Positions 4,544 through 51,124 of a stretch of 64,000 nt of DNA are shown here, piece by piece; position 1 is the stretch's first letter; the number at the start of each line of letters is the position of its first letter. Below the pieces are notes generated by a model, which was not told where the DNA came from, did no database searches, and saw only the letters and a list, made by a program, of their open reading frames with translations. The translations under genes and the position numbers were made by a program. Origin of the DNA: Clostridia bacterium DTU065 (lineage in GTDB: Bacteria; Bacillota; DTU065); NCBI GenBank assembly GCA_001512545.1, contig LFSI01000084.1, forward strand, positions 42,522 through 106,521, read 5' to 3'.

Positions 4544-6257
4544 ACAAGTCTATCTTACCGATTCTGAGTTCTTCATCTAATACCGGTTCGACGATGTTCA
4601 CCGAATGGTCTCCAATACGTTCGAGATTTCTCAAAACCTCAACGAAAACCACACCTACAAATGGAGAGCACTCTCCAGTATTGACTCTTCTGAGATGAGC
4701 ACGCCTGAGGCTTGTTTCAATGCTGTCGATCTCGTTTTCCATCTGCATGACTTCGCGTGCTAGAGTCCTGTCGTCTCTCCGCAGAGCTTCTACCGAGCGG
4801 TCATACTGTTCCTGCACGGTGTTGAAGAAGTCCTGGAGCCCTTCGGTTGCCTCCTCAGAGAAGTTGATGTTTTCCTCGATGATGTCGTTGGCGTACTGGG
4901 CAAGGTTGTTGCAGTGGTCTGCAACTCTTTCGATGTCGTTGACGATGTTCATGAGTCCTGCCATTTTCGCAGACAGCTGCTTGGTCAAAGAGCTTCGGGA
5001 AAGGATCGCCGACAGGTAGCTGATCACTTCTTTTTGAATGTGGTCAACAACATCTTCTTTGGCGAAGGCATCCTTGATGGCCTGTTTGTCCTTTTCAAAG
5101 AAACCGGCTTTGGCATCTTCCACCATCTCAGAGGCGATTTTGGCCATCCTGAGGATTTCTTTAGAGGCCAAAGTCAATGCCACAGACGGTGTGCCTAGCA
5201 TATGCTTGTCCAGATACTCCGGCGCCATTTGCGGCAGATCGCGGTCTCGTCCTGGTACCAGCACGTTCACTGCCTTCTCCATAAACGGAACAAAGCCAAC
5301 CCAAAGGAGAGTATTGATCAAGTTGAAAGACGTATGGGCATTAGCGATCAAGTGGCCGAAGCCGTCGATTGGAGTAATGGCGTAAACCAGCTTGGTGAAC
5401 CACGGAAGCACCAACATGGCAACTACAGAACCAACCACGTTAAACATCAGGTGAGCCGCTGCAGCTTTTTTTGCTGTGCGGGACGAACCGATAGACGCCA
5501 GGATGGCTGTCACACAAGTTCCGATGTTTGCTCCGAGGATAATGGGCAGCGCGGCATCAAAAGATAAAAGGCCTTGAGTTCCAAGGGCTATTACAAGACC
5601 TGTAGTAGCCGAACTCGATTGAATAATCATGGTCACCAAAATTCCTACTAATAAGGATGCAATGTGAGATCCTTCCAGGGACAGGAACAAATCAGCTAGT
5701 TTGGGGTTTTGCTTAACGACGGAAAACGCATTGCTCATTATACCCAAACCCAAAAAGAGAAGGCCAAATCCCAGGATAGTCTGTCCAATGTGTCTATAAG
5801 TTTTGTTTTTTGCAAGCATAATCAGAATGAAACCGAGTCCTATAGCGGGCAAAGCCCACTCGCCGAGATCTATAGCGATTAACCAAGCCGTCACTGTGGT
5901 ACCAATGTTTGCACCCATGATGACCCCGATAGCTTGCTTTAACGTCATCAGTCCGGCGTTGACAAAGCTCACTACCATCACCGACGTAGCGGAGCTCGAT
6001 TGAATAATTGCCGTAACTGCAGTCCCTACAAGAATTGCCGAGAATGTGTTTCCTGTCAGAACTTCCAGTATGCGGCGCATTCTTTCGCCGGCGGCTCTCT
6101 GCAGACCTTCCCCCATTTGACTCATTCCGTACAGGAAAAGGCCAAGTCCGCCAAACAAACCAAATATTATCGTTTTTGCCACTAGTTCACTGGCGAGAAC
6201 GCCAGATTCACCTCCTGTAGCGCACACTGATTGATAATTTGTTAACAATGCGACCAA
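4542..6257 (-). CDS. Na+/phosphate cotransporter family protein (NptA-like) with C-terminal PhoU-like domains
   Basis: 571 aa. The multi-helix N-terminal half has duplicated QSSSAT motifs (IIQSSSATSVMVV / IIQSSSATTGLVIAL). The C-terminal soluble half is PhoU-like. Confidence 0.8.
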   Translation of the reverse strand: MVALLTNYQSVCATGGESGVLASELVAKTIIFGLFGGLGLFLYGMSQMGEGLQRAAGERMRRILEVLTGNTFSAILVGTAVTAIIQSSSATSVMVVSFVNAGLMTLKQAIGVIMGANIGTTVTAWLIAIDLGEWALPAIGLGFILIMLAKNKTYRHIGQTILGFGLLFLGLGIMSNAFSVVKQNPKLADLFLSLEGSHIASLLVGILVTMIIQSSSATTGLVIALGTQGLLSFDAALPIILGANIGTCVTAILASIGSSRTAKKAAAAHLMFNVVGSVVAMLVLPWFTKLVYAITPIDGFGHLIANAHTSFNLINTLLWVGFVPFMEKAVNVLVPGRDRDLPQMAPEYLDKHMLGTPSVALTLASKEILRMAKIASEMVEDAKAGFFEKDKQAIKDAFAKEDVVDHIQKEVISYLSAILSRSSLTKQLSAKMAGLMNIVNDIERVADHCNNLAQYANDIIEENINFSEEATEGLQDFFNTVQEQYDRSVEALRRDDRTLAREVMQMENEIDSIETSLRRAHLRRVNTGECSPFVGVVFVEVLRNLERIGDHSVNIVEPVLDEELRIGKIDL

Positions 6258-6282
6258 TTAATATGCTTTCGAGCACCGCGCG

Positions 6283-6978
6283 CTAAATCCTTCTTCCAAC
6301 AATGCCAATCTGTCTAGCGGTAGTCTTCTCTCTCCTGTAGGAATGATAGTCTTTAGAACAGATTGTGCACTGATTGGCATGGTAGAGTTTGGAGACAACA
6401 CCTTCTAATATTAACTGATGGAACCGGTCTAAATCAAGGAAAAGCCTGCCGTCGTTTCTGTAGAAGACCTGCCTACTCTCTTTAGGCCAGCTCCCTGCAA
6501 ACTTTTCGTAGAGGTCTTCCTGCACCTCGTAGCAGCAGGGACGGGCCGAAGGTCCGATCGCCGCCACCAACTCCTTCGCACCTGAATCGAGCAGAGTCTT
6601 GGCAGCCTTCAGGGCAATGCCTTTAAGGGCCCCCTGCCATCCTGCATGAACGACCGCAACGTGCTGGCCTTTCAGGTCGGAAAAGATGATCGGCTGGCAG
6701 TCGGCTGTAAATACTCCGCCTAATAAGTTATTCTCCAAAATCAGGCCATCGCCTTCGCCGAGGTTGCCTTTTTTGTCGGCCTTCAGAATCGTACTCCCGT
6801 GGACCTGGCTGGCATAGGCCAGATCCCTTCCGGTTTTCTCCTCAATCCACCTGATGGAGGCTTCATCCTTTGCGTTGCCAAAGTGCCTGGTAGAAAACAG
6901 GTTGAACGCTGGGAAGTTTGCAAACGTTCCGAAAGGTTGTCCGTGAATAAGTTTCAGCTGATAGTAGATCTTGTCCAT
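6283..6978 (-). CDS. pgeF: Peptidoglycan editing factor PgeF / YfiH (DUF152, laccase-domain protein)
   Basis: 231 aa with the family His/Cys motif set: VHGSTIL..., VFTADCQPIIF, VAVVHAGWQG, and CTICSKDYHSYRR at the C-terminus. Confidence 0.75.
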   Translation of the reverse strand: MDKIYYQLKLIHGQPFGTFANFPAFNLFSTRHFGNAKDEASIRWIEEKTGRDLAYASQVHGSTILKADKKGNLGEGDGLILENNLLGGVFTADCQPIIFSDLKGQHVAVVHAGWQGALKGIALKAAKTLLDSGAKELVAAIGPSARPCCYEVQEDLYEKFAGSWPKESRQVFYRNDGRLFLDLDRFHQLILEGVVSKLYHANQCTICSKDYHSYRREKTTARQIGIVGRRI

Positions 6979-7023
6979 ATCAAGGCCGCCTCTTAAAAGA
7001 GGCTTCCCTCCTTTGCTTGAGGG

Positions 7024-7281
7024 TTATTTCAGCAGAAGATTGTTACTCGACGCATCCACCAAAATAACGTCTTTACCTACTGTCTTTATTTTCGTCCAAG
7101 GCACTACTACATCCTCTCGGCGTCTGAAGATTCCCCAGACGGTGTTTGGTCCCGGAACAATCAGCGCCGTGATTTGACCTGTATGCATATCAAGTTCCAA
7201 ATCGATAATCTCGCCAAGCTTCATTCCTGTTGCAGTATCCACAATCTCTTTTTGTCTTAAGTCGTTTAACCTAGTGCCCAC
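7024..7281 (-). CDS. YlmC/YmxH-family sporulation protein (PRC-barrel)
   Basis: 85 aa starting from GTG. MGTRLNDLRQKEIVDTATGMKLGEIIDLELDMHTGQITALIV... matches the YlmC/YmxH pattern. The SD AGGAGGTG lies 7 nt upstream. Confidence 0.75.
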   Translation of the reverse strand: MGTRLNDLRQKEIVDTATGMKLGEIIDLELDMHTGQITALIVPGPNTVWGIFRRREDVVVPWTKIKTVGKDVILVDASSNNLLLK

Positions 7282-7461
7282 CGCTTACACCTCCTCTTTA
7301 GGTTATGCGTTAGTCGGGATTATGGCACAGGTTGGTGAGATTTTGCTCTAACAAAGCCTAAAAGCGGTTTACCAAATGCCTATCTCCTTGATTTTGCTTA
7401 ATCCAGATTCTCCGCACCTCTAAGGATGAATGGACTTCCAGCTGGAAAAAGGTTTTTGGGG

Positions 7462-7499
7462 CAAAAAAAAAGCCGCCTCAAGACCAAGGCCAGAGGCGG
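7462..7499 (-). terminator. Rho-independent terminator of spoIIR
   Basis: GCCGCCTC ... GAGGCGG hairpin followed by a T9 run on the minus strand. It overlaps the spoIIR stop codon. Confidence 0.6.
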
Positions 7500-8092
7500 A
7501 ACTGCTGTAGGAATGCAAGCACTGCATCTAGGGAAGGTGGTTTTTTCATTTCGTTTTGAGCCAGTTTGAAACGGAACTTAACTGGCGGTCCTCCCTCGCC
7601 ATCTACAACTTCGATGGCGTTTTCTCCGGCTTCTATCGAGCAGAGCAGCGGAAACAGAACGCACCACCAGTTCTGCCCGCTTCCTTCGCCGATTATCACC
7701 TTAAGCGAGAGGTACTCTCCACTGGGAAGGATGAGGTTTCCGTAGCTTCTTTCCGGGTAGTCTTCCCTACCCAACTCTATCTTCACCGGATACTTGTATC
7801 CTATGGCTTCAGAAGCTTTCTGCACTAACTCATCTTCGCTACCCTTGATGATCTCCACTACCTTCTCCAGATCCTTTTGTCCTGAAAGCAGCACGTTCAT
7901 CTCAGCCAAGACCGCATCTCGCGCCTGCAGCTTCAGCATTTGGTCTTCGAAGCTGTCTGAGTTGGCCAAAACGTGCAACCTCAAGAACTCCTGCGAGCCA
8001 TCGGCAAAACCCAAAAACAACGGAAAGAGACATACTGCCAAAAAGACCAGTGCCGCCCTTTCCAGTTTCTCTCTCCTGAGGCGCTTTCTCAT
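7478..8092 (-). CDS. spoIIR: Stage II sporulation protein R (SpoIIR), the signal that activates pro-sigma-E processing
   Basis: 204 aa with a signal/TM N-terminus. It carries the conserved RLHVLANSDSFEDQMLKLQARDAVL block typical of SpoIIR. It lies beside spoIIGA-sigE. Confidence 0.75.
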   Translation of the reverse strand: MRKRLRREKLERAALVFLAVCLFPLFLGFADGSQEFLRLHVLANSDSFEDQMLKLQARDAVLAEMNVLLSGQKDLEKVVEIIKGSEDELVQKASEAIGYKYPVKIELGREDYPERSYGNLILPSGEYLSLKVIIGEGSGQNWWCVLFPLLCSIEAGENAIEVVDGEGGPPVKFRFKLAQNEMKKPPSLDAVLAFLQQFRLWPWS

Positions 8093-8883
8093 TGGTTGGT
8101 CGCCTCCCCCTCTGAGTAGTGCAGCTTGAGGTCGAAAAGTGCGGCTTTTTCGAGACGGGAGACCTGGGCTTGGGAGATGCCGATCTCTTCTGCAACTTCC
8201 ATTTGGGTCCTACCTTCAAAAAAGCGCATGCTTAAGATCTTTCGCTCTCTTTCATCTAGTCTATCTATAGCTTCCCTCAAAGAGATCTCTTCAATCCATA
8301 TGCTGTCTTTAGCTTTTTCGTCGTCGATTTGGTCCATTACGAAGATAGGATCTCCACCATCGTGGTAGATCGGTTCAAACAGAGAAATGGGTTCCTGAAT
8401 GGCATCGAGGGCGTAGACGATTTCCTCTCTATCCACGCCGAGGTTTTCGGCGATCTCGCTTAACGAAGGTTCCGTACCTTTTTCTCCTGCCAGCTTGTCC
8501 CTGATCTGCAGAGCTTTATACGCAATATCCCGCAGCGAACGGCTGACTCTAATGGGGTTGTTGTCTCTGAGGTAGCGTCTGATTTCACCGATGATCATTG
8601 GCACTGCATACGTTGAGAAGCGCACGTTCTGCGAGAGATCGAAGTTGTCTATGGCCTTCATTAAGCCGATACAGCCCACCTGAAAGAGATCATCGACGTT
8701 TTCGCCGCGGTTGTTGAAGCGCTGAATGACGCTGAGGACCAGCCTGAGGTTCCCCTGGATCAGCTCTTCTCTTGCAGCTTGATCTCCTTCTTTGACTTTG
8801 GCCAGGAGCATTTTCATTTTCTCGTTTTTTATGACCGGCAGTTCGGCCGTGTTTACTCCGCATATCTCAACTTTATTAATCAT
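8089..8883 (-). CDS. sigG: RNA polymerase sporulation sigma factor SigG
   Basis: From the ATG at 8883 the protein begins MINKVEICGVNTAELPVIKNEKMKMLL...NLRLVLSVIQRFNNRGENVDDLFQVGCIGLMKAIDNFD... This is near-identical in pattern to Bacillus SigG. The SD GGGAGGAAAAG lies 7 nt upstream. The longer tracked ORF (to 8976) reads through the upstream terminator and is rejected. Confidence 0.9.
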   Translation of the reverse strand: MINKVEICGVNTAELPVIKNEKMKMLLAKVKEGDQAAREELIQGNLRLVLSVIQRFNNRGENVDDLFQVGCIGLMKAIDNFDLSQNVRFSTYAVPMIIGEIRRYLRDNNPIRVSRSLRDIAYKALQIRDKLAGEKGTEPSLSEIAENLGVDREEIVYALDAIQEPISLFEPIYHDGGDPIFVMDQIDDEKAKDSIWIEEISLREAIDRLDERERKILSMRFFEGRTQMEVAEEIGISQAQVSRLEKAALFDLKLHYSEGEATNQ

Positions 8884-8952
8884 CTGCTTTTCCTCCCTAC
8901 GGGCCATCTCATAGAAAGTATGGGTGCAAAAGGCTAAAGATATACCCGAAGG

Positions 8953-8990
8953 GGACAAAAAAAACCAAGGCCCCAAAGAGTCGGCCTTGG
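8953..8990 (-). terminator. Rho-independent terminator between sigE and sigG
   Basis: CCAAGGCC-n10-GGCCTTGG hairpin with a T8 tail on the minus strand, immediately after the sigE stop. Confidence 0.65.
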
Positions 8991-8994
8991 TTTT

Positions 8995-9759
8995 TTATTC
9001 GAACTTTTTCAGTTCTCGACGCAGTTTCTTCATAATCCGCTTTTCCAGCCGGGAAATATACGACTGGGAGATACCCATTTTGTCTGCCACTTCTTTTTGA
9101 GTGAGTTCGCGGTCGATGCCGATGCCAAAGCGGAGTGTCACGATCTCCTGCTCTCTGGGTTCGAGCTTCAGGAGGGCAGCTTTCAGCAGATTTTTGTCGG
9201 TTTCTTCCTCCAGAACCTGGTACACGCCGTCGCCTTCAGAGGCGGGAAGAACGTCAAGCCAGGAGAGCTCATTTCCGTCCCAGTCTGTGTTTAGCGGGTC
9301 GTCTAAATAGACCTCTTTTGTCCTTTGGTGCCTCCTGAGAAACATCAAAATTTCGTTTTCGATACATCTAGAGGCATAGGTTGCCAGCTTAATGTTCTTG
9401 CCGATGTCAAAGGTGTTTACGGCCTTTATCAATCCGATGGTGCCGATAGACACCAGATCTTCAATGCCTACACCGGTGTTTTCGAACTTCCTGGCAATAT
9501 ATACCACAAGGCGCAGGTTTCTTTCGATAAGAGTGCTCTTAACCGACGCTTCTCCTGCTTGGAGCTTTTTCAGCAGCACCCGTTCTTCTTCTGGAAGAAG
9601 GGGCGGCGGCAGTACCTCGCTAGAGCCGACGTAAAAGACGTGGCGGCGTCTTTTGAGGAACTGGCTGAGAAAGAGCTTAACATCTAGAAGTGAGAGGCCT
9701 TTCAACTTCCCGAAGAGGGTTTTAAGCCATTTCACGCTGCTCACCTCCAGAGTTTGCAA
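8995..9759 (-). CDS. sigE: Pro-sigma-E (RNA polymerase sporulation sigma factor SigE)
   Basis: The [19 protein letters not shown] pro-sequence junction motif is present. [38 protein letters not shown] follows. The C-terminus is [22 protein letters not shown]. The gene overlaps the spoIIGA 3' end, as in Bacillus and Clostridium. The exact start (ATG at 9759 or an internal GTG) is uncertain. Confidence 0.9.
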
Positions 9760-41613: not shown

Positions 41614-43723
41614 CTCCACAGGTCTAGAGCTCCTCAAGTCGCAGGATCAAAATCCTAAGACCAGCGAAGGCACCGTCAAAGTGGCGCTTCTCGGCAATCC
41701 CAACACCGGAAAGAGCACAGTGTTCAACGCCCTGACGGGATTAAAGCAGCACACCGGAAACTGGCCGGGAAAGACCGTGGAGGTTGCAACAGGCAGGTTC
41801 TCCTTTGACGGAAAGGAGTTTCTTTTAGTTGACCTTCCGGGCACATACTCCATTTTCGCCGACTCCCCCGAGGAGGAGATTGCTCGGGACTTCCTTCTTT
41901 TCTCCAAACCCGACGTTACAGTGGTAGTAGTGGACGCGGCCTGCCTGGAAAGGAACCTCCAGCTTCTCCTTCAGGTAATAGAGATCTCCCCACGGACGGT
42001 GCTATGCGTCAATCTCATGGATGAAGCGGAAAAAATAGGTACAGCTCCAGATCTCCAAAAGCTCCAAGAACTCCTGAACATCCCCGTCGTGGGGACAGCT
42101 GCAAGAAGCGGACGCGGCATCGAAGCTCTTAAGGCGTCCATCACAAACGCTGCTCTGAAAACCGAAGACGACAGCCCGTTTTCGCCGACCTACAGCGAAA
42201 AGCTCGAAGAAGAGATCGGGATGAAAGTGTCACTCTTCGAGCAAACACCCCTTGATCCTCGAACGAAAAGGTGGATTGCGCTTAGGCTTCTAGACGGCGA
42301 CGCTACTCTCCTTGATAAGCTGAACCGCTTCCTCCCAGATGCCCTTTCTCCATCTTTGGTAGATAACCTTGCAAGAGTGGCAAGAGCCGAGCGAGATGCA
42401 GATGACACTAGAGAAGAGATCGTCTCCTCCATCTACCGAGAAGCCGAACGCATAGCAAAGCTTGTGGCAAAAGAACGGCAGCTTCCTCCTAGCAAGTTCA
42501 CCGCAGATAAGCTGATCACCTCGAAAGCTTTAGGCATTCCTATCATGCTGATTCTCTTAGCACTGGTTTTCTGGCTGACCATTGTGGGGGCAAACTACCC
42601 TTCCCAGCTGCTCTTTGCCGGTTTCAGCTTTTTAGAAGCTAAGCTCTACACCGTTCTCGGTACCCTAGCTCTTCCCCACTGGCTGGCAGATCTTCTCACC
42701 TATGGCGTCTTTCGCACCCTCTCATGGGTGGTGGCGGTGATGCTCCCGCCGATGGCCATCTTCTTTCCGCTCTTTACTCTCCTTGAAGACTGGGGTTTTC
42801 TTCCCCGCATAGCTTTCAATCTAGATGGCCTTTTTCGCAAGGCCGGTTCGCACGGGAAGCAGTCTCTGACCATGTGCATGGGTTTTGGCTGCAACGCAGC
42901 AGGAGTGGTTGCAACCCGAATCATTGACTCGCCTAGAGAGCGGCTCATTGCAGCTTTAACCAACAACTTCGTTCCCTGCAACGGGAGGTTTCCCACCTTG
43001 ATCCTGATGATTACCCTGTTTTTTACAGGTAGCGGGAGATTCTCATCGTTGCCGGGAGCATTACTCCTCCTCGTGGTGATTGTTGCCTCGGTCTTTACCA
43101 CCCTTCTCGTTTCAAAACTGCTGTCTAAAACAATCCTTCGAGGCATCCCTTCGGCGTTCTCTTTGGAACTGCCACCCTACAGGACGCCGCAGCTGACAAA
43201 GGTTTTGCTGAGGTCTCTTCTAGACCGAACTGCTTTCGTTTTAGCCAGGGCAGTTCTAGTTGCTGCCCCTGCAGGTGCAGTCATCTGGATCTTGGCAAAC
43301 ACCACCTTCGGCAGTTCTTCTCTACTACAGATGCTCGTAAGCTTCCTAGCTCCTCTAGGGCGTTTGATGGGTCTAGATGGGGCGATCCTCACAGGATTTG
43401 TGCTGGGCTTTCCTGCAAATGAGATCGTGCTTCCTGTAACCTACATGGCCTACCTGTCTGGAGGCACTCTCGTGGAGATGGAATCGCTTGCTGCCACTAG
43501 AGCACTGCTTGTGGCAAACGGCTGGTCTGTTAAAACAGCCCTCTGTTTGATGATCTTTTCCCTGAACCACTTCCCCTGCGGCACAACGCTTTTGACGATC
43601 AAGAAAGAAACGGGAAGTTGGAAATGGACCGCTTTGGCATTTATCATTCCCACACTAGTGGGTATTGTCGGCTGTATCCTGGTTGCACAGATCTACAACT
43701 TTTTCTCCTTTTTGTTGTTATAG
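41582..43723 (+). CDS. feoB: Ferrous iron transporter FeoB
   Basis: The G-domain has VALLGNPNTGKSTVFNALTG (G1) and DLPGTYS (G2/G3), followed by a polytopic permease. 713 aa. Confidence 0.9.
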   Translation: MRVRKMGLTLSSTGLELLKSQDQNPKTSEGTVKVALLGNPNTGKSTVFNALTGLKQHTGNWPGKTVEVATGRFSFDGKEFLLVDLPGTYSIFADSPEEEIARDFLLFSKPDVTVVVVDAACLERNLQLLLQVIEISPRTVLCVNLMDEAEKIGTAPDLQKLQELLNIPVVGTAARSGRGIEALKASITNAALKTEDDSPFSPTYSEKLEEEIGMKVSLFEQTPLDPRTKRWIALRLLDGDATLLDKLNRFLPDALSPSLVDNLARVARAERDADDTREEIVSSIYREAERIAKLVAKERQLPPSKFTADKLITSKALGIPIMLILLALVFWLTIVGANYPSQLLFAGFSFLEAKLYTVLGTLALPHWLADLLTYGVFRTLSWVVAVMLPPMAIFFPLFTLLEDWGFLPRIAFNLDGLFRKAGSHGKQSLTMCMGFGCNAAGVVATRIIDSPRERLIAALTNNFVPCNGRFPTLILMITLFFTGSGRFSSLPGALLLLVVIVASVFTTLLVSKLLSKTILRGIPSAFSLELPPYRTPQLTKVLLRSLLDRTAFVLARAVLVAAPAGAVIWILANTTFGSSSLLQMLVSFLAPLGRLMGLDGAILTGFVLGFPANEIVLPVTYMAYLSGGTLVEMESLAATRALLVANGWSVKTALCLMIFSLNHFPCGTTLLTIKKETGSWKWTALAFIIPTLVGIVGCILVAQIYNFFSFLLL

Positions 43724-43741: not shown

Positions 43742-44206
43742 CTATAACTTTTTCTCGTCAAGATACTCCCTCCACAGCCTGTGGTGATGCCTTAGAAATG
43801 CCGTAAGCTGCTCGAGCCGCTCTACGGTAGCCGGACTCAAGTAGTGCTCGATCATCTCCGTTTCCAAAAAACCGATCTCGCCGCTACCCAAAACAGCGAA
43901 GAACTCCTCGATGATTTCGTGTCTTTGGATGAGAAACTCACCGGTTTTTGCACCAAGGTCTGTGAGCTGGATCTTGCCGTAGGGCTCGTAGGTGACAAAA
44001 CCCAAACATGCCAAGCGCTGCACATTCTTGGTGATCGCCGAAGGACTCACGCTGAGCTCCTTTGCCAGGTCTGCCGGTTTCAAAAGCTCGCCACTTCTGG
44101 TTCTGCGGTAGATCATTTCCAGGTAGTCTTCGAGGCTGGCAGAAAGCTTCCCCTTACAGGACCTTGCGGTCTCAAAACCCCTAAACGTCTTAAACCTTTT
44201 CCCCAC
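43742..44206 (-). CDS. DtxR/MntR-family metal-dependent transcriptional regulator
   Basis: The ASLEDYLEMIYRRTRSGELLKPADLAKELSVSPSAITKNVQRLACLGFV HTH is followed by a metal-binding/dimerisation region. The likely start is the GTG at 44206. The tracked ORF extends to 44302 over a plus-strand promoter. Confidence 0.7.
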   Translation of the reverse strand: MGKRFKTFRGFETARSCKGKLSASLEDYLEMIYRRTRSGELLKPADLAKELSVSPSAITKNVQRLACLGFVTYEPYGKIQLTDLGAKTGEFLIQRHEIIEEFFAVLGSGEIGFLETEMIEHYLSPATVERLEQLTAFLRHHHRLWREYLDEKKL

Positions 44207-44342
44207 AGCAACCCCATCTTTCTTGTGGTATAATCTGGATGAAAAGCGATGTAACTCAGGAAACTTTTTCAAGCCGCATATTAATAGATATGCTAGAACC
44301 AAATGTTTCTCAAGTTATTTCTTTTGAGCAAAGGAGTGCGCC

Positions 44343-44750
44343 ATGGAAAAGCTATTTGGTATCTTCGCGTTTATCATGCTGCTTTTTGTTTTTTCGGCTC
44401 TGACCATTACCACAGAATACCTCACGCCGTTTGGGACCGTGACTGTTTCCGTTTCTCCGACGGTCTTTGAGTGGACGGTGTCTGTAAACGCCGACGACTA
44501 CCGCACCGAAAGTTATTTTGAGGTGCACAGCCCAGGCTTCTATGTTCTCGTTACCGACGGACACGCACCGAAAGGTCAGTTTACCGTCCGCATACTGTCT
44601 TCCTCCAACCGCGTGGTTTATGAAGCTCAAGCCGCTCACGTGCATCCGCAAAACAAGATCTATCTAGAGCCCGGACGCTACCTGATCAGCGTCACCTCAA
44701 AAAACGCCAAACACACCAGCTACACCATCTACCTCACTGGTGCAGACTGA
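44343..44750 (+). CDS. Hypothetical exported/membrane-anchored protein (135 aa)
   Basis: The N-terminal hydrophobic helix is LFGIFAFIMLLFVFSALTI. The SD AAAGGAGTG precedes the start, and an extended -10 promoter (TTGTGGTATAAT, 44222-44235) lies upstream. A tandem terminator follows. Confidence 0.45.
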   Translation: MEKLFGIFAFIMLLFVFSALTITTEYLTPFGTVTVSVSPTVFEWTVSVNADDYRTESYFEVHSPGFYVLVTDGHAPKGQFTVRILSSSNRVVYEAQAAHVHPQNKIYLEPGRYLISVTSKNAKHTSYTIYLTGAD

Positions 44751-44763
44751 CCCAGACTCATAT

Positions 44764-44820
44764 GGGAGTGTTGCAAGACTACTACACAAGTAGTTTAGCA
44801 ACACTCCCTTTCTACTATCT
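44764..44820 (+). terminator. Long-stem terminator
   Basis: GGGAGTGTTGCAAGACTACT-ACACA-AGTAGTTTAGCAACACTCCC, then TTTCTACTATCT. Confidence 0.55.
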
Positions 44821-44832
44821 CGACAAAAAAGA

Positions 44833-44877
44833 GGCTGCTGTACAATCGGCTAGTTGTGCAGCAGCCCTTTCTGTTTG
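44833..44877 (+). repeat. Hairpin/terminator element, copy A (GGCTGCTGTACAA...TTGTGCAGCAGCC-CTTTCTGTTTG)
   Basis: A 13-bp stem plus a T-rich tail. A close relative sits at 47308-47357. Confidence 0.5.
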
Positions 44878-45129
44878 CACGCTTTGAGCCTTTAGGTACA
44901 GGTGCACGCACAACGCTTTTAAACTGAACTCTGTTATGACAAGAATGTACCATCTTCTTCTGCCTGCTGTCTTCCTAGTCTTTGCACGCCTGGAATATTA
45001 TTGAACCACGAAGACATACTATTGATTAGGGAAAAAGATAGTGGAGGTGCGTAAAATGGGAGATTCTCGCACAAATCTTGCTAGTACTTCAAAAAATGTT
45101 ACCATATAACTAACAAGGAGGCTGCTCTT

Positions 45130-46414
45130 ATGTTAATTGAGTACACGGTTAAGAACTTCAGATCTTTTAGGGATGAAGTTGTTCTTTCGATGGTTGCAGA
45201 TAAGAACAGGGAGTTAGCAGATACAAACACATTCCAAGTCGGAGACACGAACTTACTAAAGGTTGCTGCTCTGTACGGAAGCAACGCAAGCGGGAAATCG
45301 AATTTGATAGAGTCGTTTAGATTTTTCGGCTTTCTTTTTCGCCCTGGAGCAATTACTAAAAAAACCCTTTCCGATTTGCCGTATTTTAGGCTTAACGCAG
45401 AGGGTAAGGACAAACCCATATCGTACGAGATCTCGTTTTTTCTTAATGGTGTTCGTTACCGTTATGGCATTGAGGTCGACAGTGACGGCATATGTTCAGA
45501 ATGGTTGTATTTTGTTCCAAAGAGGCAAGAAGCATGCTACTTTGAAAGAGATCGAGACCAAATAACTCGCACCGGGACATACTTCAAAGACAAAAAAGCA
45601 TTGCAGTATATAAAACCCGATTCAACAAGACCGTTCTTGTTTACCCTCGCACAGGACTCTGTTAGGAAGTTCGATTGGGCAAAGAGTATTGTGGACTACT
45701 TCTGGTTCTACATCAGGTCAAGTGACATGCCAGAAACATTCTTCAAAAACATGATGGATGACGAGATTGCTTGCAAGTCTGATTCGGGCATCATCTCCAA
45801 GGACGAAGTAGTGTCTTATTTGAGATTGGCAGATTCCGGTATTACAGATGTTTCAGTAATAGAAAAAAACGCAGAAGATGACGAGCTTATCGAACAGCTA
45901 ACTGAGTTTGTGAAGCAACGAGGTGCAAAAATTGAGTTTGAGAGAGAGATGGGAGACGTTTTTCCATCATGCTAAATACGACAATGACAAGCTAGTTGGA
46001 GATGAGAAGTTCCCGTTGCGTGCAGAATCGAGGGGAACATTTAAATTATACTGTATGCTCTACCCGATACTCTGCGTGCTGAAAAAGGGTGGAGTTCTTT
46101 TGGTAGATGAAATTGAAAGTTCACTGCATCCGCTTTTGTGCGAGAAGATAGTACAGGTTTTTAACAGTTCAAAAACTAATCCACGTAACGCGCAATTGCT
46201 CTTCACCACTCACAACACTTTCCTGATGAATCGTCATCTATTGAGAAGAGACCAGATCTATTTCGTTGAGAAAGATGACTATGGAGCAAGCGATTTGTAC
46301 AGCTTATACGATGTTGACCTAGACATTCGCAGTAACTTCAACTATGAAGACAACTATCTTGCAGGGCGCTTCGGTGCTATACCGTATGTAAGCGATTTCT
46401 GTTCAACTAAATAA
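45130..46414 (+). pseudogene. AAA_21/ABC-type ATPase of an AbiL/RloA-like defence pair, split by a +1 frameshift
   Basis: ORF 45130-45975 carries Walker A (LYGSNASGKSNLIES). ORF 45923-46414, in the +1 frame, carries the signature-like SRGTFKL, Walker B (VLLVDEIESSLHP) and the H-loop (LFTTHN). The 53-nt overlap contains a GAGAGAGAGA tract at 45940-45949. Confidence 0.6.
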
Positions 46415-46431
46415 ATGGATGGGGGATTGCT

Positions 46432-47052
46432 TTGGCTAAAGGGCGCAGAACATCCAGTTATCGGAGAAGAAAAAGAGGCATCCGCCCCAATCCATTTTTC
46501 ATCATAGTCTGTGAAGGTGAAGTTACGGAACCTGATTACTTTAAGTCATTTCCATATTCATGCAAACTTGGTTATAGCTATGTTCATGGAACGGTCCACA
46601 TTGTCTCCGGGGCGGGGCAACATGAAAAAGTAGTTGTAAAGGCCGACGAGGTTTGGCGGAAACTCAAAAAGGAGTATGGGGCGATTAGTTCGAACGAAGT
46701 ATGGTGCGTTTTCGACTGTGACGGAAATACGGATAGCCTTAACCGAGCAATTAAAGCTGCAGAGTCTAAAGGCTTCAACGCAATTTACTCGATACAATGC
46801 TTTGAGTTATGGTTTTTATTGCATTTTCAACCACTCACAACGGCTATAGATAGAAAAGACTATGACAGACGACTGAGTAACCACTTGGGGATCAACTACG
46901 AACACGGAATGAAGGGGATGTACCATCTCTTGCAGAACCGTCAGGAAGATGCCATTAGAGCTGCCAAGCAGCTGTGGGAGCAGAAAGCAGAGCTTGGTGA
47001 ACTCACTGGTGATCCTATTACAAATGTGTTCATGCTTGTTGAGGCATTATGA
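46432..47052 (+). CDS. RloB-family (Toprim/OLD-like) protein, partner of the ATPase (AbiLii-like)
   Basis: The N-terminal FIIVCEGEVTEPDYFKSF is the RloB hallmark. A later VFDCDGNTD block is present. 206 aa, 17 nt after the ATPase stop. Confidence 0.7.
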   Translation: MAKGRRTSSYRRRKRGIRPNPFFIIVCEGEVTEPDYFKSFPYSCKLGYSYVHGTVHIVSGAGQHEKVVVKADEVWRKLKKEYGAISSNEVWCVFDCDGNTDSLNRAIKAAESKGFNAIYSIQCFELWFLLHFQPLTTAIDRKDYDRRLSNHLGINYEHGMKGMYHLLQNRQEDAIRAAKQLWEQKAELGELTGDPITNVFMLVEAL

Positions 47053-47262
47053 TGCTCATCGCAACCTTAAAAACAGAAGATGATTCGAATCGGTTCTTAA
47101 TCGGTTTTGGGTTGACAAGCGAGAGACTTTGTTAATTTGCTATGTTTTCAGCTCCAAAACACGCAGCCTAAGCAGAATTCTGGCATACCGCTGCTGTCTA
47201 GATCCTACCAAAGTCTTAGTAGAATGAAAAACGCTGTCTTAGTTTATTAACAAGCTTTTTTG

Positions 47263-47295
47263 CGACGAGCCTTCTTTGGCTCGTTTCTTTTTGTG
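47263..47295 (+). terminator. Terminator
   Basis: GACGAGCC-TTCTTTG-GCTCGT, followed by TTCTTTTTGT. Confidence 0.45.
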
Positions 47296-47307
47296 CTTAC
47301 AAACAAA

Positions 47308-47357
47308 GGCTGCTGCACAACTTGCTTGGGTGGCTAAATGTGCAACAGCCCTTTTGT
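47308..47357. repeat. Hairpin/terminator element, copy B (GGCTGCTGCACAA...ATGTGCAACAGCC-CTTTTGT)
   Basis: It matches the 44833-44877 element at 12 of 13 left-arm positions and 11 of 13 right-arm positions, with the same CCCTTT tail. The loops differ (8 versus 17 nt). It is T-rich on both strands. Confidence 0.5.
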
Positions 47358-47365
47358 AGTATATT

Positions 47366-47848
47366 TCACTGATCTTGTTTATTTACTTTGTAGATCAGCT
47401 GGATGTAATCACCAGGAAGAGTGTTCTTAGCAACAACCTCAATATCTCCCCCGTACGTCAAAGATGAAAGAGCTCTCAGGTCCTGGACTTCATCTGTCAG
47501 CTCTTTCATCTTTGCCCTGATACTAGCGACTTTAGTTACAAGATCAGCACCGGAGCCAAAAGCAAACTTATCGGTGCTTTTTGGTATATCTACCGAATAG
47601 GGTCCTTTCAAAACGTAAGTGTTGGCTATTCTGCGGCTCTCGGCTGGAATTCTTTCGATGAAACCCTGTTCAGTCAACACTTCAACTGCTTTAAACACGG
47701 CTCCTTTAGAAAGACCGCAAATCTCGGCCAGCTCGTCGTACTTGACCTGCAGCCGATCACTTCCTGTTTCCATGCACTTAAGAATGAATGCTCTTTTGAA
47801 CTGCTCTAGCGTTTGCTGCGATACGTTCTTGACCCATTCCTTAGACAC
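47366..47848 (-). CDS. Winged-helix DNA-binding protein (RepL/MarR-like HTH), function unknown
   Basis: 160 aa from a GTG start. FILKCMETGSDRLQVKYDELAEICGLSKGAVFKAVEVLTEQGFIERI is a wHTH. An AT-rich upstream region carries the GGTATCaaGATACC palindrome. Confidence 0.45.
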   Translation of the reverse strand: MSKEWVKNVSQQTLEQFKRAFILKCMETGSDRLQVKYDELAEICGLSKGAVFKAVEVLTEQGFIERIPAESRRIANTYVLKGPYSVDIPKSTDKFAFGSGADLVTKVASIRAKMKELTDEVQDLRALSSLTYGGDIEVVAKNTLPGDYIQLIYKVNKQDQ

Positions 47849-48074
47849 TTCAGTTCCCCATTCACCTCCTGGAAATAATCGGTATCAAGATACCAGCCTC
47901 AAGTCCTATTATAGCACATTTGTGCCTAAAAAACAGCCAATATACTCAAATTGATTACTATTTATTATTACATTATACAATTATCCAGAAGGTTATTTGG
48001 TTCAATTCAGGCATTAAAAACTTGTTGATCCATTGCGAAAAGCAGCTCACAGGCCATTGTCCCCAAGCTTGTTT

Positions 48075-50102
48075 TCACTGCTGAAACTTCCCAGGAAATA
48101 ATTTTGCAAGTGCGGCTCTGATCTCGGCCTCTGAGTTAATCCTCTCGCTGCAGGTTCCCCCCTTGCAAAGATAGAGGGCAAGCTCGCCTGCAGGTTTCCC
48201 CGCTTCAATGCCAAACTCAGGACAGGTGCCATCTGCAAACCAGAACAGAATGCCTGCAAGATAGTTCTGTTGGATTTCGGATCTGATCTGGGCCAAAAAC
48301 CCTGCGTCCTTCTCTCCTCCTGTTAGCACCACTTCCCAGCTTTCGCCCAGGTACCAGCTCGTAACAAGAACCAGAAGCGGTGCACCTTCAGGGTCGCTTT
48401 TGAGCACTCCTGCAAGGCCGCGCAGGGTCTGCTCCAACCTTCTCCGCAGTTCGAGGTCGCCGGTCACCTGAAAGAGCCTAAACAGCACTAAGGACATCAC
48501 CGAGTTGCCCTGGGGAATAGCTCCGTCGAACACCTCTTTTGGCCGTGTGGGAAGGATTGTATCTGCGGCGATCTTGTAGTAACCTCCTGCTTCTTCGTCG
48601 TAAAAGAGCCGGTTGGCTCTATTCACCAGGTTCAGCGCAATCTCCAACGCCTCTTTCCTTTCCCTACCCTCTTTCATGACACCGTACTCAAAAAAGCCCC
48701 AAGCAAGATAAGCATAGTCGTCGAGGTGACCTTTGGATATAACCTTGCCCCCTATCAACGCTCCCGGAAGTTCTTCCGAAGCGGCAATCCCTCGAAGGTA
48801 GCGATACAGAGCATCTGCAGCGTTCTGGATCCTTTCATCAAGAAAAGCAGCCTTGGCCAATCCTGCAAGGAGTAAACCGTTGGCAAACACGAGAATCTTT
48901 TTGTCGGTGAAAGGAGCGGTTCTGGTTTTCCCGCGGTACCTTTTCAGCTTACTTTGGATCTGTTCGAGCTCTTCCCGGTCCTTCCCTGATACAAGGTCCC
49001 AAAAAGCTTTTGAGCTTTTTGGGAAAAGATGGATTTTTCCCTCGAAGTTTCCATCTGCAGAGATTTCGTAGTACTTGGCCAGAAGACGAAGCTCGGCTGG
49101 AGTGAGAACCTCTTCTAGTTCTCCGACGGTGTAAAGATAGAAAGCTCCTTCCTTAGTCCCTGCGTCTTGAGCTGTAAAATATCCTCCATCTTCTCCTTTG
49201 AGATTGGCCTCTAAGTACTCAAAAACTTGAATGGCCTTGTGTTTAAAGTATCGGTCCTTGGTAAAGCGGTAGAACTCTCCCAGAGTATAGAGTAAAAAGG
49301 CGTTGTCGTAGAGCATCTTTTCGAAGTGAGGAACTTTGAACTGGGCATCAGTAGAGTATCTGAACATACCCCCTCCCACTTGATCGAAAGTGCCCTTGCC
49401 AAGAAGGCTCTTTAGGGTGTGCATGGCGATGTGCAGCGTTTTGTGATCGCTGCTGTCTGCGGCAGCATCCAGAAGCAAAAGAAGATTCTGCAGTTGAGGA
49501 AACTTTGGTGCAGGCAAAAACCCTCCGTGCTCAGGATCGTACTCTTCCTTCAGGTTTTCCACAGCCTTCAACGCAGCCTCTACCACGAACTCTCCCAAAG
49601 CACCTCCAGCCTCCGGTAAGTTTTCAATGCTCCGCTGTGCAGCTTCATCAATAATACTCCGGTCGTTCTCCCAGAACTCGACGATTTTTTGGAGCACATC
49701 GATCAGGCCAATCCGGCGCAATGTAGCCTTTTTCGGGAAGTAAGTCCCCGCATAAAACGGCAGCAGGTCCGGAGTGAGAAACACCGTCAGCGGCCATCCT
49801 CCCATACCAGTAGTTCTTACGCAGTAGTCCATGTACACAGCATCTACGTCTGGGTGCTGCTCTCGATCTACTTTAACAGCTACGAAATGCTCGTTGAGGA
49901 TCTCTGCCACTTCCTCATCTTGGAAGGACTCGTCGTTCATAACGTGGCACCAGTGGCACGTGGAGTAGCCGATGGAAAGAAATATTGGACGGTCCAGCGC
50001 TTTAGCCCGTGCAAAGGCCTCCTCGCCCCACGGATACCAGTCTATGGGGTTTTCTCCGTGGAGCTGCAGGTACGGTGAAGGTTCGCGTTTTAGCCGATTC
50101 AT
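48075..50102 (-). CDS. Thioredoxin-domain protein of the DUF255/YyaL family (N-terminal Trx fold plus six-hairpin glycosidase-like domain)
   Basis: [55 protein letters not shown] is the classic DUF255 start, including CHWC. 675 aa. Confidence 0.8.
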
Positions 50103-50663: not shown

Positions 50664-50957
50664 ATGTACACCAATGCAGAAGAGATACTCCCTCGCGATC
50701 TGATCGAGCAGATTCAGCAGTACATTCAGGGACAAGAAATCTACATTCCCAAATGCGACGAAAAGAAGCTGGGCTGGGGTGAAAGAAACGGTGCCAAGGC
50801 GCTGATTCGGGAACGCAACCGAACCATCTGCAGGAAATATGAATGCGGAGCTTCCATCGACGAGCTGATGGCTGAGTTCCATCTGAGCTACGACAGCATC
50901 CGCAAGATCGTTAGGGGAAGCAGGAAAAAACAACTCAGAAGCAAGAAAGGCATCTAA
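50664..50957 (+). CDS. Small putative transcriptional regulator (Mor / CD3324-like family, tentative)
   Basis: 97 aa. ILPRDLIEQIQQYIQGQEIYIPK...RNRTICRKYECGASIDELMAEFHLSYDSIRKIV resembles the small Mor-like activator pattern as I recall it. Confidence 0.45.
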   Translation: MYTNAEEILPRDLIEQIQQYIQGQEIYIPKCDEKKLGWGERNGAKALIRERNRTICRKYECGASIDELMAEFHLSYDSIRKIVRGSRKKQLRSKKGI

Positions 50958-51124
50958 CTTCGATGCCTTTTTTTATATAATCAAATCGGGAACCGGCCAA
51001 ATCATCCCAATAAGGGAGGTGGTTGAATTGATCAACCAGAGGTGGCTGAGAGTCTAACTCTCGGTGACAAACCGGCAGACCTGGCATGGAGGTCTGCCGG
51101 CTTTTTTTGCCCCTTTTAAATATG

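Follow-up and report, generated by a model that had tools for sequence, protein, structure and literature searches.

An AbiL/RloAB-type cassette, probably acquired by horizontal transfer and switched off by a frameshift in its ATPase gene, in a Clostridia bacterium of anaerobic digesters

A 64,000-nucleotide (64-kb) stretch of the genome of Clostridia bacterium DTU065 (contig LFSI01000084.1, positions 42,522 to 106,521 of the forward strand), termed here the window and numbered from its first letter, contains a short AT-rich segment that encodes a two-gene cassette of the AbiL/RloAB type: an ABC-like AAA_21 ATPase (AbiLi) followed by a Toprim-like protein of the RloB family (AbiLii). This analysis suggests that the cassette was probably acquired by horizontal transfer; that in its intact form it would act as an ATPase-plus-Toprim abortive-infection system; that it has been turned off in this genome by slippage within a short GA repeat of the ATPase gene; and that, in other strains of the species, further independent lesions have disabled the ATPase while RloB has been kept. 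As a defense system the pair is nothing new in kind, both proteins already being labeled by current tools (PADLOC, Pfam and NCBI naming).

The locus is nevertheless a small, clean case in which the place of an insertion can be traced back to its empty state, which holds one terminator. Moreover, in a species present in hundreds of digester metagenomes, it shows decay in which only the ATPase gene or its promoter is struck (by slippage, by deletion or by an insertion sequence, IS) and the nuclease gene survives. These natural alleles bear, as indirect evidence, on an open point in the biology of such systems: does the ATPase restrain its Toprim partner as an antitoxin, or does it activate it? 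They also provide a caution, in that a motif-level reading may call a defense system present when it is genetically off.

Identity of the cassette

The two cassette genes lie on the same strand, with the RloB gene starting 17 nt past the ATPase stop codon (coordinates of all features are given in Table 1). The ATPase is represented by two open reading frames (ORFs) that overlap in different frames, the second of which (45923-46414; 163 aa; frame 2) holds the Walker B motif and the H-loop. The N-terminal ORF matches positions 1-155 of the 304-position Pfam AAA_21 profile (PF13304; 68.7 bits) and the C-terminal ORF positions 230-304 (70.0 bits; cut-off 27 bits), and both match the PADLOC AbiLi model PDLC02335. 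The intact ATPase allele found in conspecific contigs (see below) matches AbiLi with an E-value of 1.1e-92; AriA, the ATPase of the PARIS system, is a weaker second PADLOC match (2.1e-40).

The RloB protein matches Pfam PF13707 over the entire profile (residues 23-206 against positions 1-195 of 195; E = 7.9e-42; 144.1 bits against a cut-off of 31.5), with residues 23-37 reading FIIVCEGEVTEPDYF, and it matches the PADLOC AbiLii model PDLC02337 (1.7e-26). AbiLii is its only PADLOC match at E <= 0.01, with no match to an AriB/DUF4435 model. Within 55 RloB homologues E28 and D95xD97 are invariant, and E125 and H131 are also listed as invariant. The topology of the RloB structural model fits a Toprim-like alpha/beta core, a fold marked by a conserved Glu after beta1 and a DxD after beta3; a Foldseek search against PDB gave nothing at E <= 0.001. 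Sequence searches of PDB with the ATPase and with RloB returned no matches, and NCBIfam has no specific model for either protein.

By every sequence criterion tested, the pair is thus classified within the AbiL/RloAB family, and it is not classified as a PARIS member. The original prediction, made from the letters alone, had named the Walker A, Walker B and H-loop motifs, a 206-aa RloB-family gene 17 nt further on and an ATPase-plus-RloB pair of the AbiLi/AbiLii type; the motifs are all present, the ORF list agrees, and the strong Pfam (AAA_21, RloB) and PADLOC (AbiLi, AbiLii) matches bear out the assignment. It went wrong in taking the ATPase to be a single gene: in this genome a frameshift leaves Walker A in one reading frame and Walker B with the H-loop in another.

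Downstream of the RloB gene, an ATG overlapping its stop codon (as ATGA) opens a 28-aa ORF (MMLIATLKTEDDSNRFLIGFGLTSERLC; 47049-47135, + strand), which may have arisen by chance. DNA homology with the related cassettes of loci L103 and L104 (loci fetched for comparison are numbered here with the prefix L) runs about 25 nt beyond the RloB stop, to 47077.

The frameshift in the GA tract

Alignment of 44303-48075 to 12 conspecific loci, which are 99.6-99.9% identical to it, locates the frameshift at a 2-nt gap: one GA unit is missing from the window's tract. In intact alleles (GA)6 encodes ...KIEFERERWETFFHHAKY..., and the ATPase is a single 428-aa gene in most contigs (L001, L004, L006, L008-L014). 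In the window the tract is followed by eight out-of-frame codons and then a stop at 45973-45975. A shift at the T5 run 45959-45963 was also considered and was ruled out by the alignment to intact alleles, which puts the lesion in the GA tract.

The shortened tract is not peculiar to the window. At least 17 contigs carry the product of this allele (termed here dGA), annotated as 160 or 163 aa; 13 of them, from several projects, were examined. Because dGA occurs on many contigs from independent samples, it is not a one-off sequencing error. An AbiL system with both genes intact is found in the conspecific loci named above and not in this genome, where the frameshift makes the locus, as sequenced, most likely a dead or switched-off system.

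Lesions across the species

Look-ups of the exact protein find RloB indexed in 476 blocks, on 398 contigs, and show that the species is common in anaerobic-digester and biogas metagenomes. Gene order is identical throughout the conspecific contigs, and several further lesions occur among them. One G is lost at 45209 (dG), alone in L002 and L005 and together with dGA in L003, L017 and L018. A 1,051-bp deletion (45050-46100), with microhomology at its junction, takes out the promoter region along with two thirds of the ATPase gene in L007, L016 and L177. In L017, an IS3-family element flanked by a 4-bp target duplication (45096-45099) sits 31 nt upstream of the ATPase start codon. Finally, L020 diverges to unrelated sequence at 45449 and L019 at 45904, and both contigs stop 23-28 nt further on, which is what a junction with a repeat or an IS would be expected to give; the junction sequences have no match in the window or in the fetched loci. 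Rough contig counts, which are lower bounds drawn from 40 of 79 cluster members, are at least 111 intact, at least 17 of dGA type and 10 with dG only.

Every one of these lesions hits the ATPase gene or its promoter. Across 20 loci and about 20 kb, further coding indels are confined to L005 and L015, two assemblies of visibly low coverage, and RloB is 206 aa long wherever it is covered, including in loci found through DtxR (which are unbiased with respect to RloB) and in all dGA contigs. This concentration of independent ATPase lesions, together with slippage at a short GA repeat, is the one mildly unusual aspect of the locus, and it is best explained as the decay of a costly defense gene.

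Several points weigh against this reading. With six events, a lesion-free RloB is statistically indistinguishable from chance, and a few shortened RloB entries do occur in the cluster. Haplotype analysis of whether dG and dGA each had one or several origins met a reticulate pattern of single-nucleotide polymorphisms (SNPs); the SNP table is strongly reticulate, and metagenome contigs are consensus sequences of strain mixtures. Moreover, the window's exact haplotype (dGA without dG, giving the 281-aa product) is found on one contig only and could be chimeric.

A stronger interpretation of the same pattern is that the ATPase is specifically and repeatedly eliminated in the natural population with RloB retained, which would mean either that the short repeat is an ON/OFF switch or that RloB has a selectable role independent of the ATPase. 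This is regarded as rather unlikely; if true, it would make these alleles natural knock-outs that speak for the AbiL ATPase as a licensing sensor and not an antitoxin.

The switch, taken as an explanation of its own, would be a reversible phase-variation device by which an active abortive-infection system is hedged against its cost, the window having been caught in the OFF phase. Such an explanation draws on the fact that the frameshift lies exactly in the only dinucleotide repeat of five or more units within the 64 kb, that (GA)5 and (GA)6 are both common in the species, that dGA alleles retain RloB and the promoter, and that all four dG/dGA combinations occur, which implies recurrence or recombination. 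Like phase-variable restriction-modification and other contingency loci, then, this locus has an intragenic dinucleotide repeat within a defense gene whose length polymorphism ((GA)5 versus (GA)6 at 45940) shifts the frame, with both lengths present in the population. Unlike them, it shows no sign of a repeat that has been evolutionarily conserved or expanded: the tract is short (5-6 units), six units being few for a high-rate contingency locus, and it is absent from the homologues that are 65-67% identical, which read ...ELETYMHH... there. Irreversible lesions, furthermore, occur alongside it, since most dGA contigs also carry the irreversible-looking dG and some lineages add the IS or the 1-kb deletion, as in progressive decay; and recombination or consensus chimerism would account for the reticulate SNPs. 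Switching is thus putative here and, on balance, unlikely.

It might also be that the frameshift, or the haplotype of the window, is an assembly artefact or strain chimera, and that the true ATPase is either intact or doubly mutated. Not only is the window's product confined to a single contig, but all other dGA contigs examined also have dG, and the two sites lie 730 nt apart, so that an assembler could resolve each independently. Nevertheless, at least 13 contigs, which come from several projects and were built with several assemblers, contain dGA, and this indicates that the lesion is biological, even though its phasing with 45209 is uncertain, and any resolution short of a fully intact gene still leaves the ATPase broken. 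An artefact is hence quite improbable, and decay of the ATPase gene remains the preferred explanation.

Other variation between conspecific contigs lies outside the cassette. At 51102, in the intergenic region between the Mor-like and MFS genes, about half of the contigs differ by a 1-nt indel, the only recurrent indel outside the ATPase. In the 5' part of feoB (41854-41924), 8 SNPs in 70 nt occur in L001 and L011 only (the same contig); this cluster suggests either a short stretch of recombination or a local fault of the assembly.

Proposed mechanism and the role of the ATPase

The proposed mechanism is as follows. A low-GC cassette of 2.4-2.5 kb would have entered, by horizontal transfer, a short convergent intergenic region between a gene for a 135-aa hypothetical protein and a winged helix-turn-helix (wHTH) gene, bringing with it its own leader, ribosome-binding site (RBS), ABC-type AAA_21 ATPase, Toprim-like RloB effector and terminator. 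By analogy with PARIS, the intact 428-aa ATPase may serve as the sensor, or as a scaffold, by which the RloB nuclease is held and licensed, and infection may release or activate this nuclease, so that cell or phage is halted (abortive infection). Slippage within (GA)6 would then drop one GA unit, cutting the ATPase after residue 273, parting Walker A from Walker B and turning the system off. The system should accordingly be inactive in the window's genome.

Because the ATPase or its promoter has been destroyed repeatedly with the RloB ORF left intact, the cell can do without the ATPase, which is probably costly, and probably tolerates RloB on its own; if so, RloB is not a free toxin in need of an ATPase antitoxin. 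Inasmuch as the dG and dGA alleles keep both the promoter and the RloB ribosome-binding site, ATPase-null, RloB-intact strains fit the licensing model and argue, at least for these alleles, against a simple toxin-antitoxin system. A parallel exists in PARIS, where AriB on its own gives no defense and has no strong toxicity (PMC11464382); the natural ATPase knock-outs described here resemble that AriB-alone condition. Against the model stands the fact that the sensor and effector roles are taken over from PARIS, a system with which RloB shares no detectable similarity in sequence. AbiL has been grouped with ABC ATPase-plus-TOPRIM systems, its mechanism being untested (PMC13064643).

In the opposing scheme the pair would be an addiction module akin to a toxin-antitoxin system, in which the ATPase neutralizes a constitutively toxic RloB nuclease. 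Precedents for this are the validated AAA-ATPase 'antitoxins' that NetFlax paired with TOPRIM_OLD toxins and to which it relates RloB (PMC10440598), and the AbiLii of F. nucleatum, which is toxic alone (PMC3985639) and which, for this reason, also shows that tolerance of RloB alone is not general. In the same study, however, F. nucleatum AbiLi did not neutralize AbiLii, and L. lactis AbiLii alone was not toxic in E. coli (PMC3985639); and natural ATPase-null alleles that keep an intact RloB ORF together with its ribosome-binding site and the promoter of the operon are frequent and persist across samples. An addiction module is consequently highly doubtful, and licensing of RloB by the ATPase is the model preferred here.

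Relationship to known systems

The closest counterpart, as judged by PADLOC profile matches, is the AbiL system of L. lactis (AbiLi plus AbiLii; Deng et al. 1999, as cited in PMC13064643), which likewise consists of two close, co-directional genes, an ABC/Rad50-like AAA_21 ATPase first and an RloB-family protein of about 200 aa second. The two differ in that AbiL is carried on a lactococcal plasmid, whereas the cassette described here is chromosomal in an uncultured digester member of the Bacillota and has a frameshifted ATPase. With RloA/RloB of C. jejuni (restriction-linked ORFs) the cassette shares a full-length PF13707 protein beside an AAA ATPase, but not the association with type I restriction-modification genes, none of which occur nearby; its neighbors are core genes. 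PARIS (AriA, an ABC ATPase, plus AriB, a Toprim nuclease) is built on the same two-part plan, with the ABC ATPase first and the Toprim-type effector second, and the intact ATPase does match AriA; yet AbiLi is a much better model for that ATPase, and RloB lacks the AriB/DUF4435 match noted above. The OLD family (P2 Old, class 2 OLD, Gabija GajA) differs: here ATPase and nuclease are separate proteins, there is no match to Pfam Toprim_OLD, and structural similarity is only moderate.

Composition and flanks of the insertion

Between 44880 and 47300 the guanine-plus-cytosine (GC) fraction is 0.422 against a window mean of 0.492 (standard deviation 0.021 per 2.4-kb window, the unit used for the background; z = -3.4), and no other 2.4-kb stretch of the window is as poor in GC as that at about 44,870-47,300. 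At third codon positions (GC3) the value for the two island genes is 0.45, as compared with 0.55-0.63 in MiaB, FeoB, DtxR, the 135-aa gene, DUF255 and Mor. The low-GC zone extends to about 48,075 and thus spans the wHTH gene, whose GC3 is 0.47.

Some 2.6 kb separate the stop codon of the 135-aa hypothetical gene (44343-44750, + strand) from that of the wHTH gene, and these two genes are the direct neighbors of the island; DtxR and DUF255 do not abut it directly. No integrase or transposase gene occurs within 10 kb on either side, and an Rfam scan of 44200-48300 yielded only noise matches. The original prediction of an AT-richer segment without an integrase is borne out within these bounds, as is its observation that two closely related hairpins bracket the segment (see below). 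Its placement of the segment between a feoAB/DtxR block and a DUF255 gene gave the general location correctly but not the real flanks.

The empty site and the origin of the cassette

Relatives were found by a protein search with DUF255 and by contig look-ups; the search gave no close relative, the nearest DUF255 proteins being 50-58% identical, and a contig scan on a widely conserved DUF255 motif gave, among the matches listed, relatives at most 41% identical. In L108 and L109 (DUF255 50-52% identical) the neighborhood is syntenic (ExbBD ... SLH, MFS, Mor, DUF255, ... the 135-aa homologue, DtxR, FeoB, FeoA), and in place of the pair the slot holds a gene for a rubrerythrin-like protein of 145-148 aa (L108 12721-13167, L109 12528-12965; 59% identical to each other), a remnant of which was sought in the window and was not found there. 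In L108 a wHTH gene 64% identical to the window's directly follows DUF255. In L232, the closest relative found (DUF255 58%, wHTH 73%), the wHTH gene and the 135-aa orthologue converge on a gap of 70 nt that holds one bidirectional terminator hairpin and nothing else; this is the empty site. The pair is hence absent at this position in the relatives, and since L108 and L109 carry a rubrerythrin-like gene there, L232 nothing and the window the AbiL pair, the slot between the two convergent genes varies in content within this lineage.

The wHTH gene, which the original prediction had noted, with its AT-rich upstream region, as following the segment, was also considered as a part of the island. 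Its synteny and its 64-73% identity to the relatives, within the 50-74% range of the neighboring core genes (core genes as a whole range from 41% to 74%), rule this out: it occupies the same position in those genomes and, low though its GC3 is, represents an ordinary, vertically inherited core gene.

The nearest homologues of the cassette, 65-67% identical in both DNA and protein, are bare ATPase-RloB pairs without the wHTH gene; they lie in Clostridia, in unrelated surroundings and next to genes for transposases or integrases, and their GC is 0.32-0.33 as against 0.40-0.47 for their own flanks. DNA homology between these cassettes and the window extends only from 45067/45091 to 47048/47077 (i.e., over the leader and the two genes). 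At about 30-37% identity, the pair occurs also on plasmids of many phyla. From these comparisons, insertion of the cassette between two core genes is confirmed.

That the locus is instead ancestral, the relatives having lost the pair and low GC being a property of the gene family, is very improbable: composition alone is weak evidence given that the core wHTH gene also has a low GC3, and only four related loci, all distant, are available, but the slot lacks the pair in three of them with both flanks syntenic, the nearest homologues lie in unrelated contexts beside mobile-element genes, and the relatives' genomes are at about 0.37 GC, so that 0.42 in the cassette is not simply ancestry within a 0.49-GC host.

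Observations made on these loci may be added. The whole L108 locus is at about 0.37 GC (GC3 0.20-0.35) as against 0.49 in the window (GC3 0.55-0.63), a large shift despite shared gene order. In L105, L106 and L107 (about 6001-8059) a cassette 66% identical to the window's lies beside an AMP-binding gene, with either a mutator-type transposase or an integrase/excisionase block upstream; in that species it lies beside changeable mobile DNA.

The flanking hairpins

The left and right flanking hairpins align with 40 identical columns and a 9-nt indel in the loop, and only two copies of the sequence occur in the 64 kb, 0.11 being expected by chance. Both are real terminators, and the left one, which is redundant after the hairpin of the 135-aa gene, may be a duplicated copy of the wHTH terminator. 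Because the empty site of L232 has a single hairpin, the simplest reading, although an unproven one, is that the cassette landed in or next to an ancestral convergent terminator, which now stands on both sides of it.

Four findings keep this reading, and with it that of the hairpins as att-like ends of the island, at the level of a possibility. The L232 hairpin cannot be aligned with them; homologous cassettes elsewhere lack comparable flanks; there is no recombinase; and the stem (GGCTGCTGCACAA...TGTGCAGCAGCC) occurs with many different loops of 4-10 nt in more than 100 unrelated human-gut metagenome contigs, a recurrence from which it follows that this stem is a common form of terminator. 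Such contigs made up most of the matches of the metagenome scan for the hairpin pattern; one match, L177, is a third copy of the allele with the 1,051-bp deletion.

Hairpins of the attC or IS200/IS605 type were considered as well and rejected: the R'/R'' consensus is lacking, no recombinase is present, and homologous cassettes do not have such flanks.

Table 1. Features of the cassette and its immediate flanks (positions within the window)
Feature	Coordinates	Strand	Remarks
Terminator hairpin of the 135-aa gene (left-flank landmark)	44764..44808	+	20-bp stem; -30.6 kcal/mol; z -8.6
Left flanking hairpin, terminator-like (second, redundant after the 135-aa gene)	44833..44866	+	-27 kcal/mol; z -5.2
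Leader of the cassette, 5'	45067..45129	+	RBS AAGGAGG at 45116-45122
AbiLi-type ABC/AAA_21 ATPase, N-terminal part (Walker A GSNASGKSN)	45130..45975	+	281 aa; frame 1; AAA_21 1.2e-18; AbiLi 7.6e-38
(GA)5 tract, frameshift site	45940..45949	+	(GA)6 in intact conspecifics, encoding ...EFERERWETFFHH...
ATPase, C-terminal part (Walker B LLVDEIESSLHP, H-loop FTTHN)	45950..46414	+	+1 frame relative to N-terminal part; AAA_21 4.8e-19; AbiLi 9.6e-52
AbiLii/RloB protein, intact	46432..47052	+	206 aa; TTG start
Intrinsic terminator of the cassette operon	47264..47285	+	-13.9 kcal/mol; z -4.8; followed by a T-tract
Right flanking hairpin, terminator of the wHTH gene	47308..47351	-	Best fold on the minus strand; -26.7 kcal/mol; z -5.2
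wHTH (MarR/IclR-like) gene (right-flank landmark, core)	47366..47848	-	Pfam HTH matches; synteny

Neighboring features

Inside the coding region of the wHTH gene lies an inverted repeat (47459-47514) with 21-nt arms that are 90% complementary and a 14-nt loop; its only Rfam match is noise. In L109, and in no other relative, genes for a HAD hydrolase and a Dam-type (MethyltransfD12) methyltransferase (7307-9207) lie between MFS and Mor, which constitutes a second variable spot. The Mor-family gene itself (50664-50957, + strand; 97 aa; phage Mu Mor-like, PF08765) is 66-74% identical to its counterparts and keeps its place in every relative; its behavior is thus that of a core gene and not of a prophage remnant.

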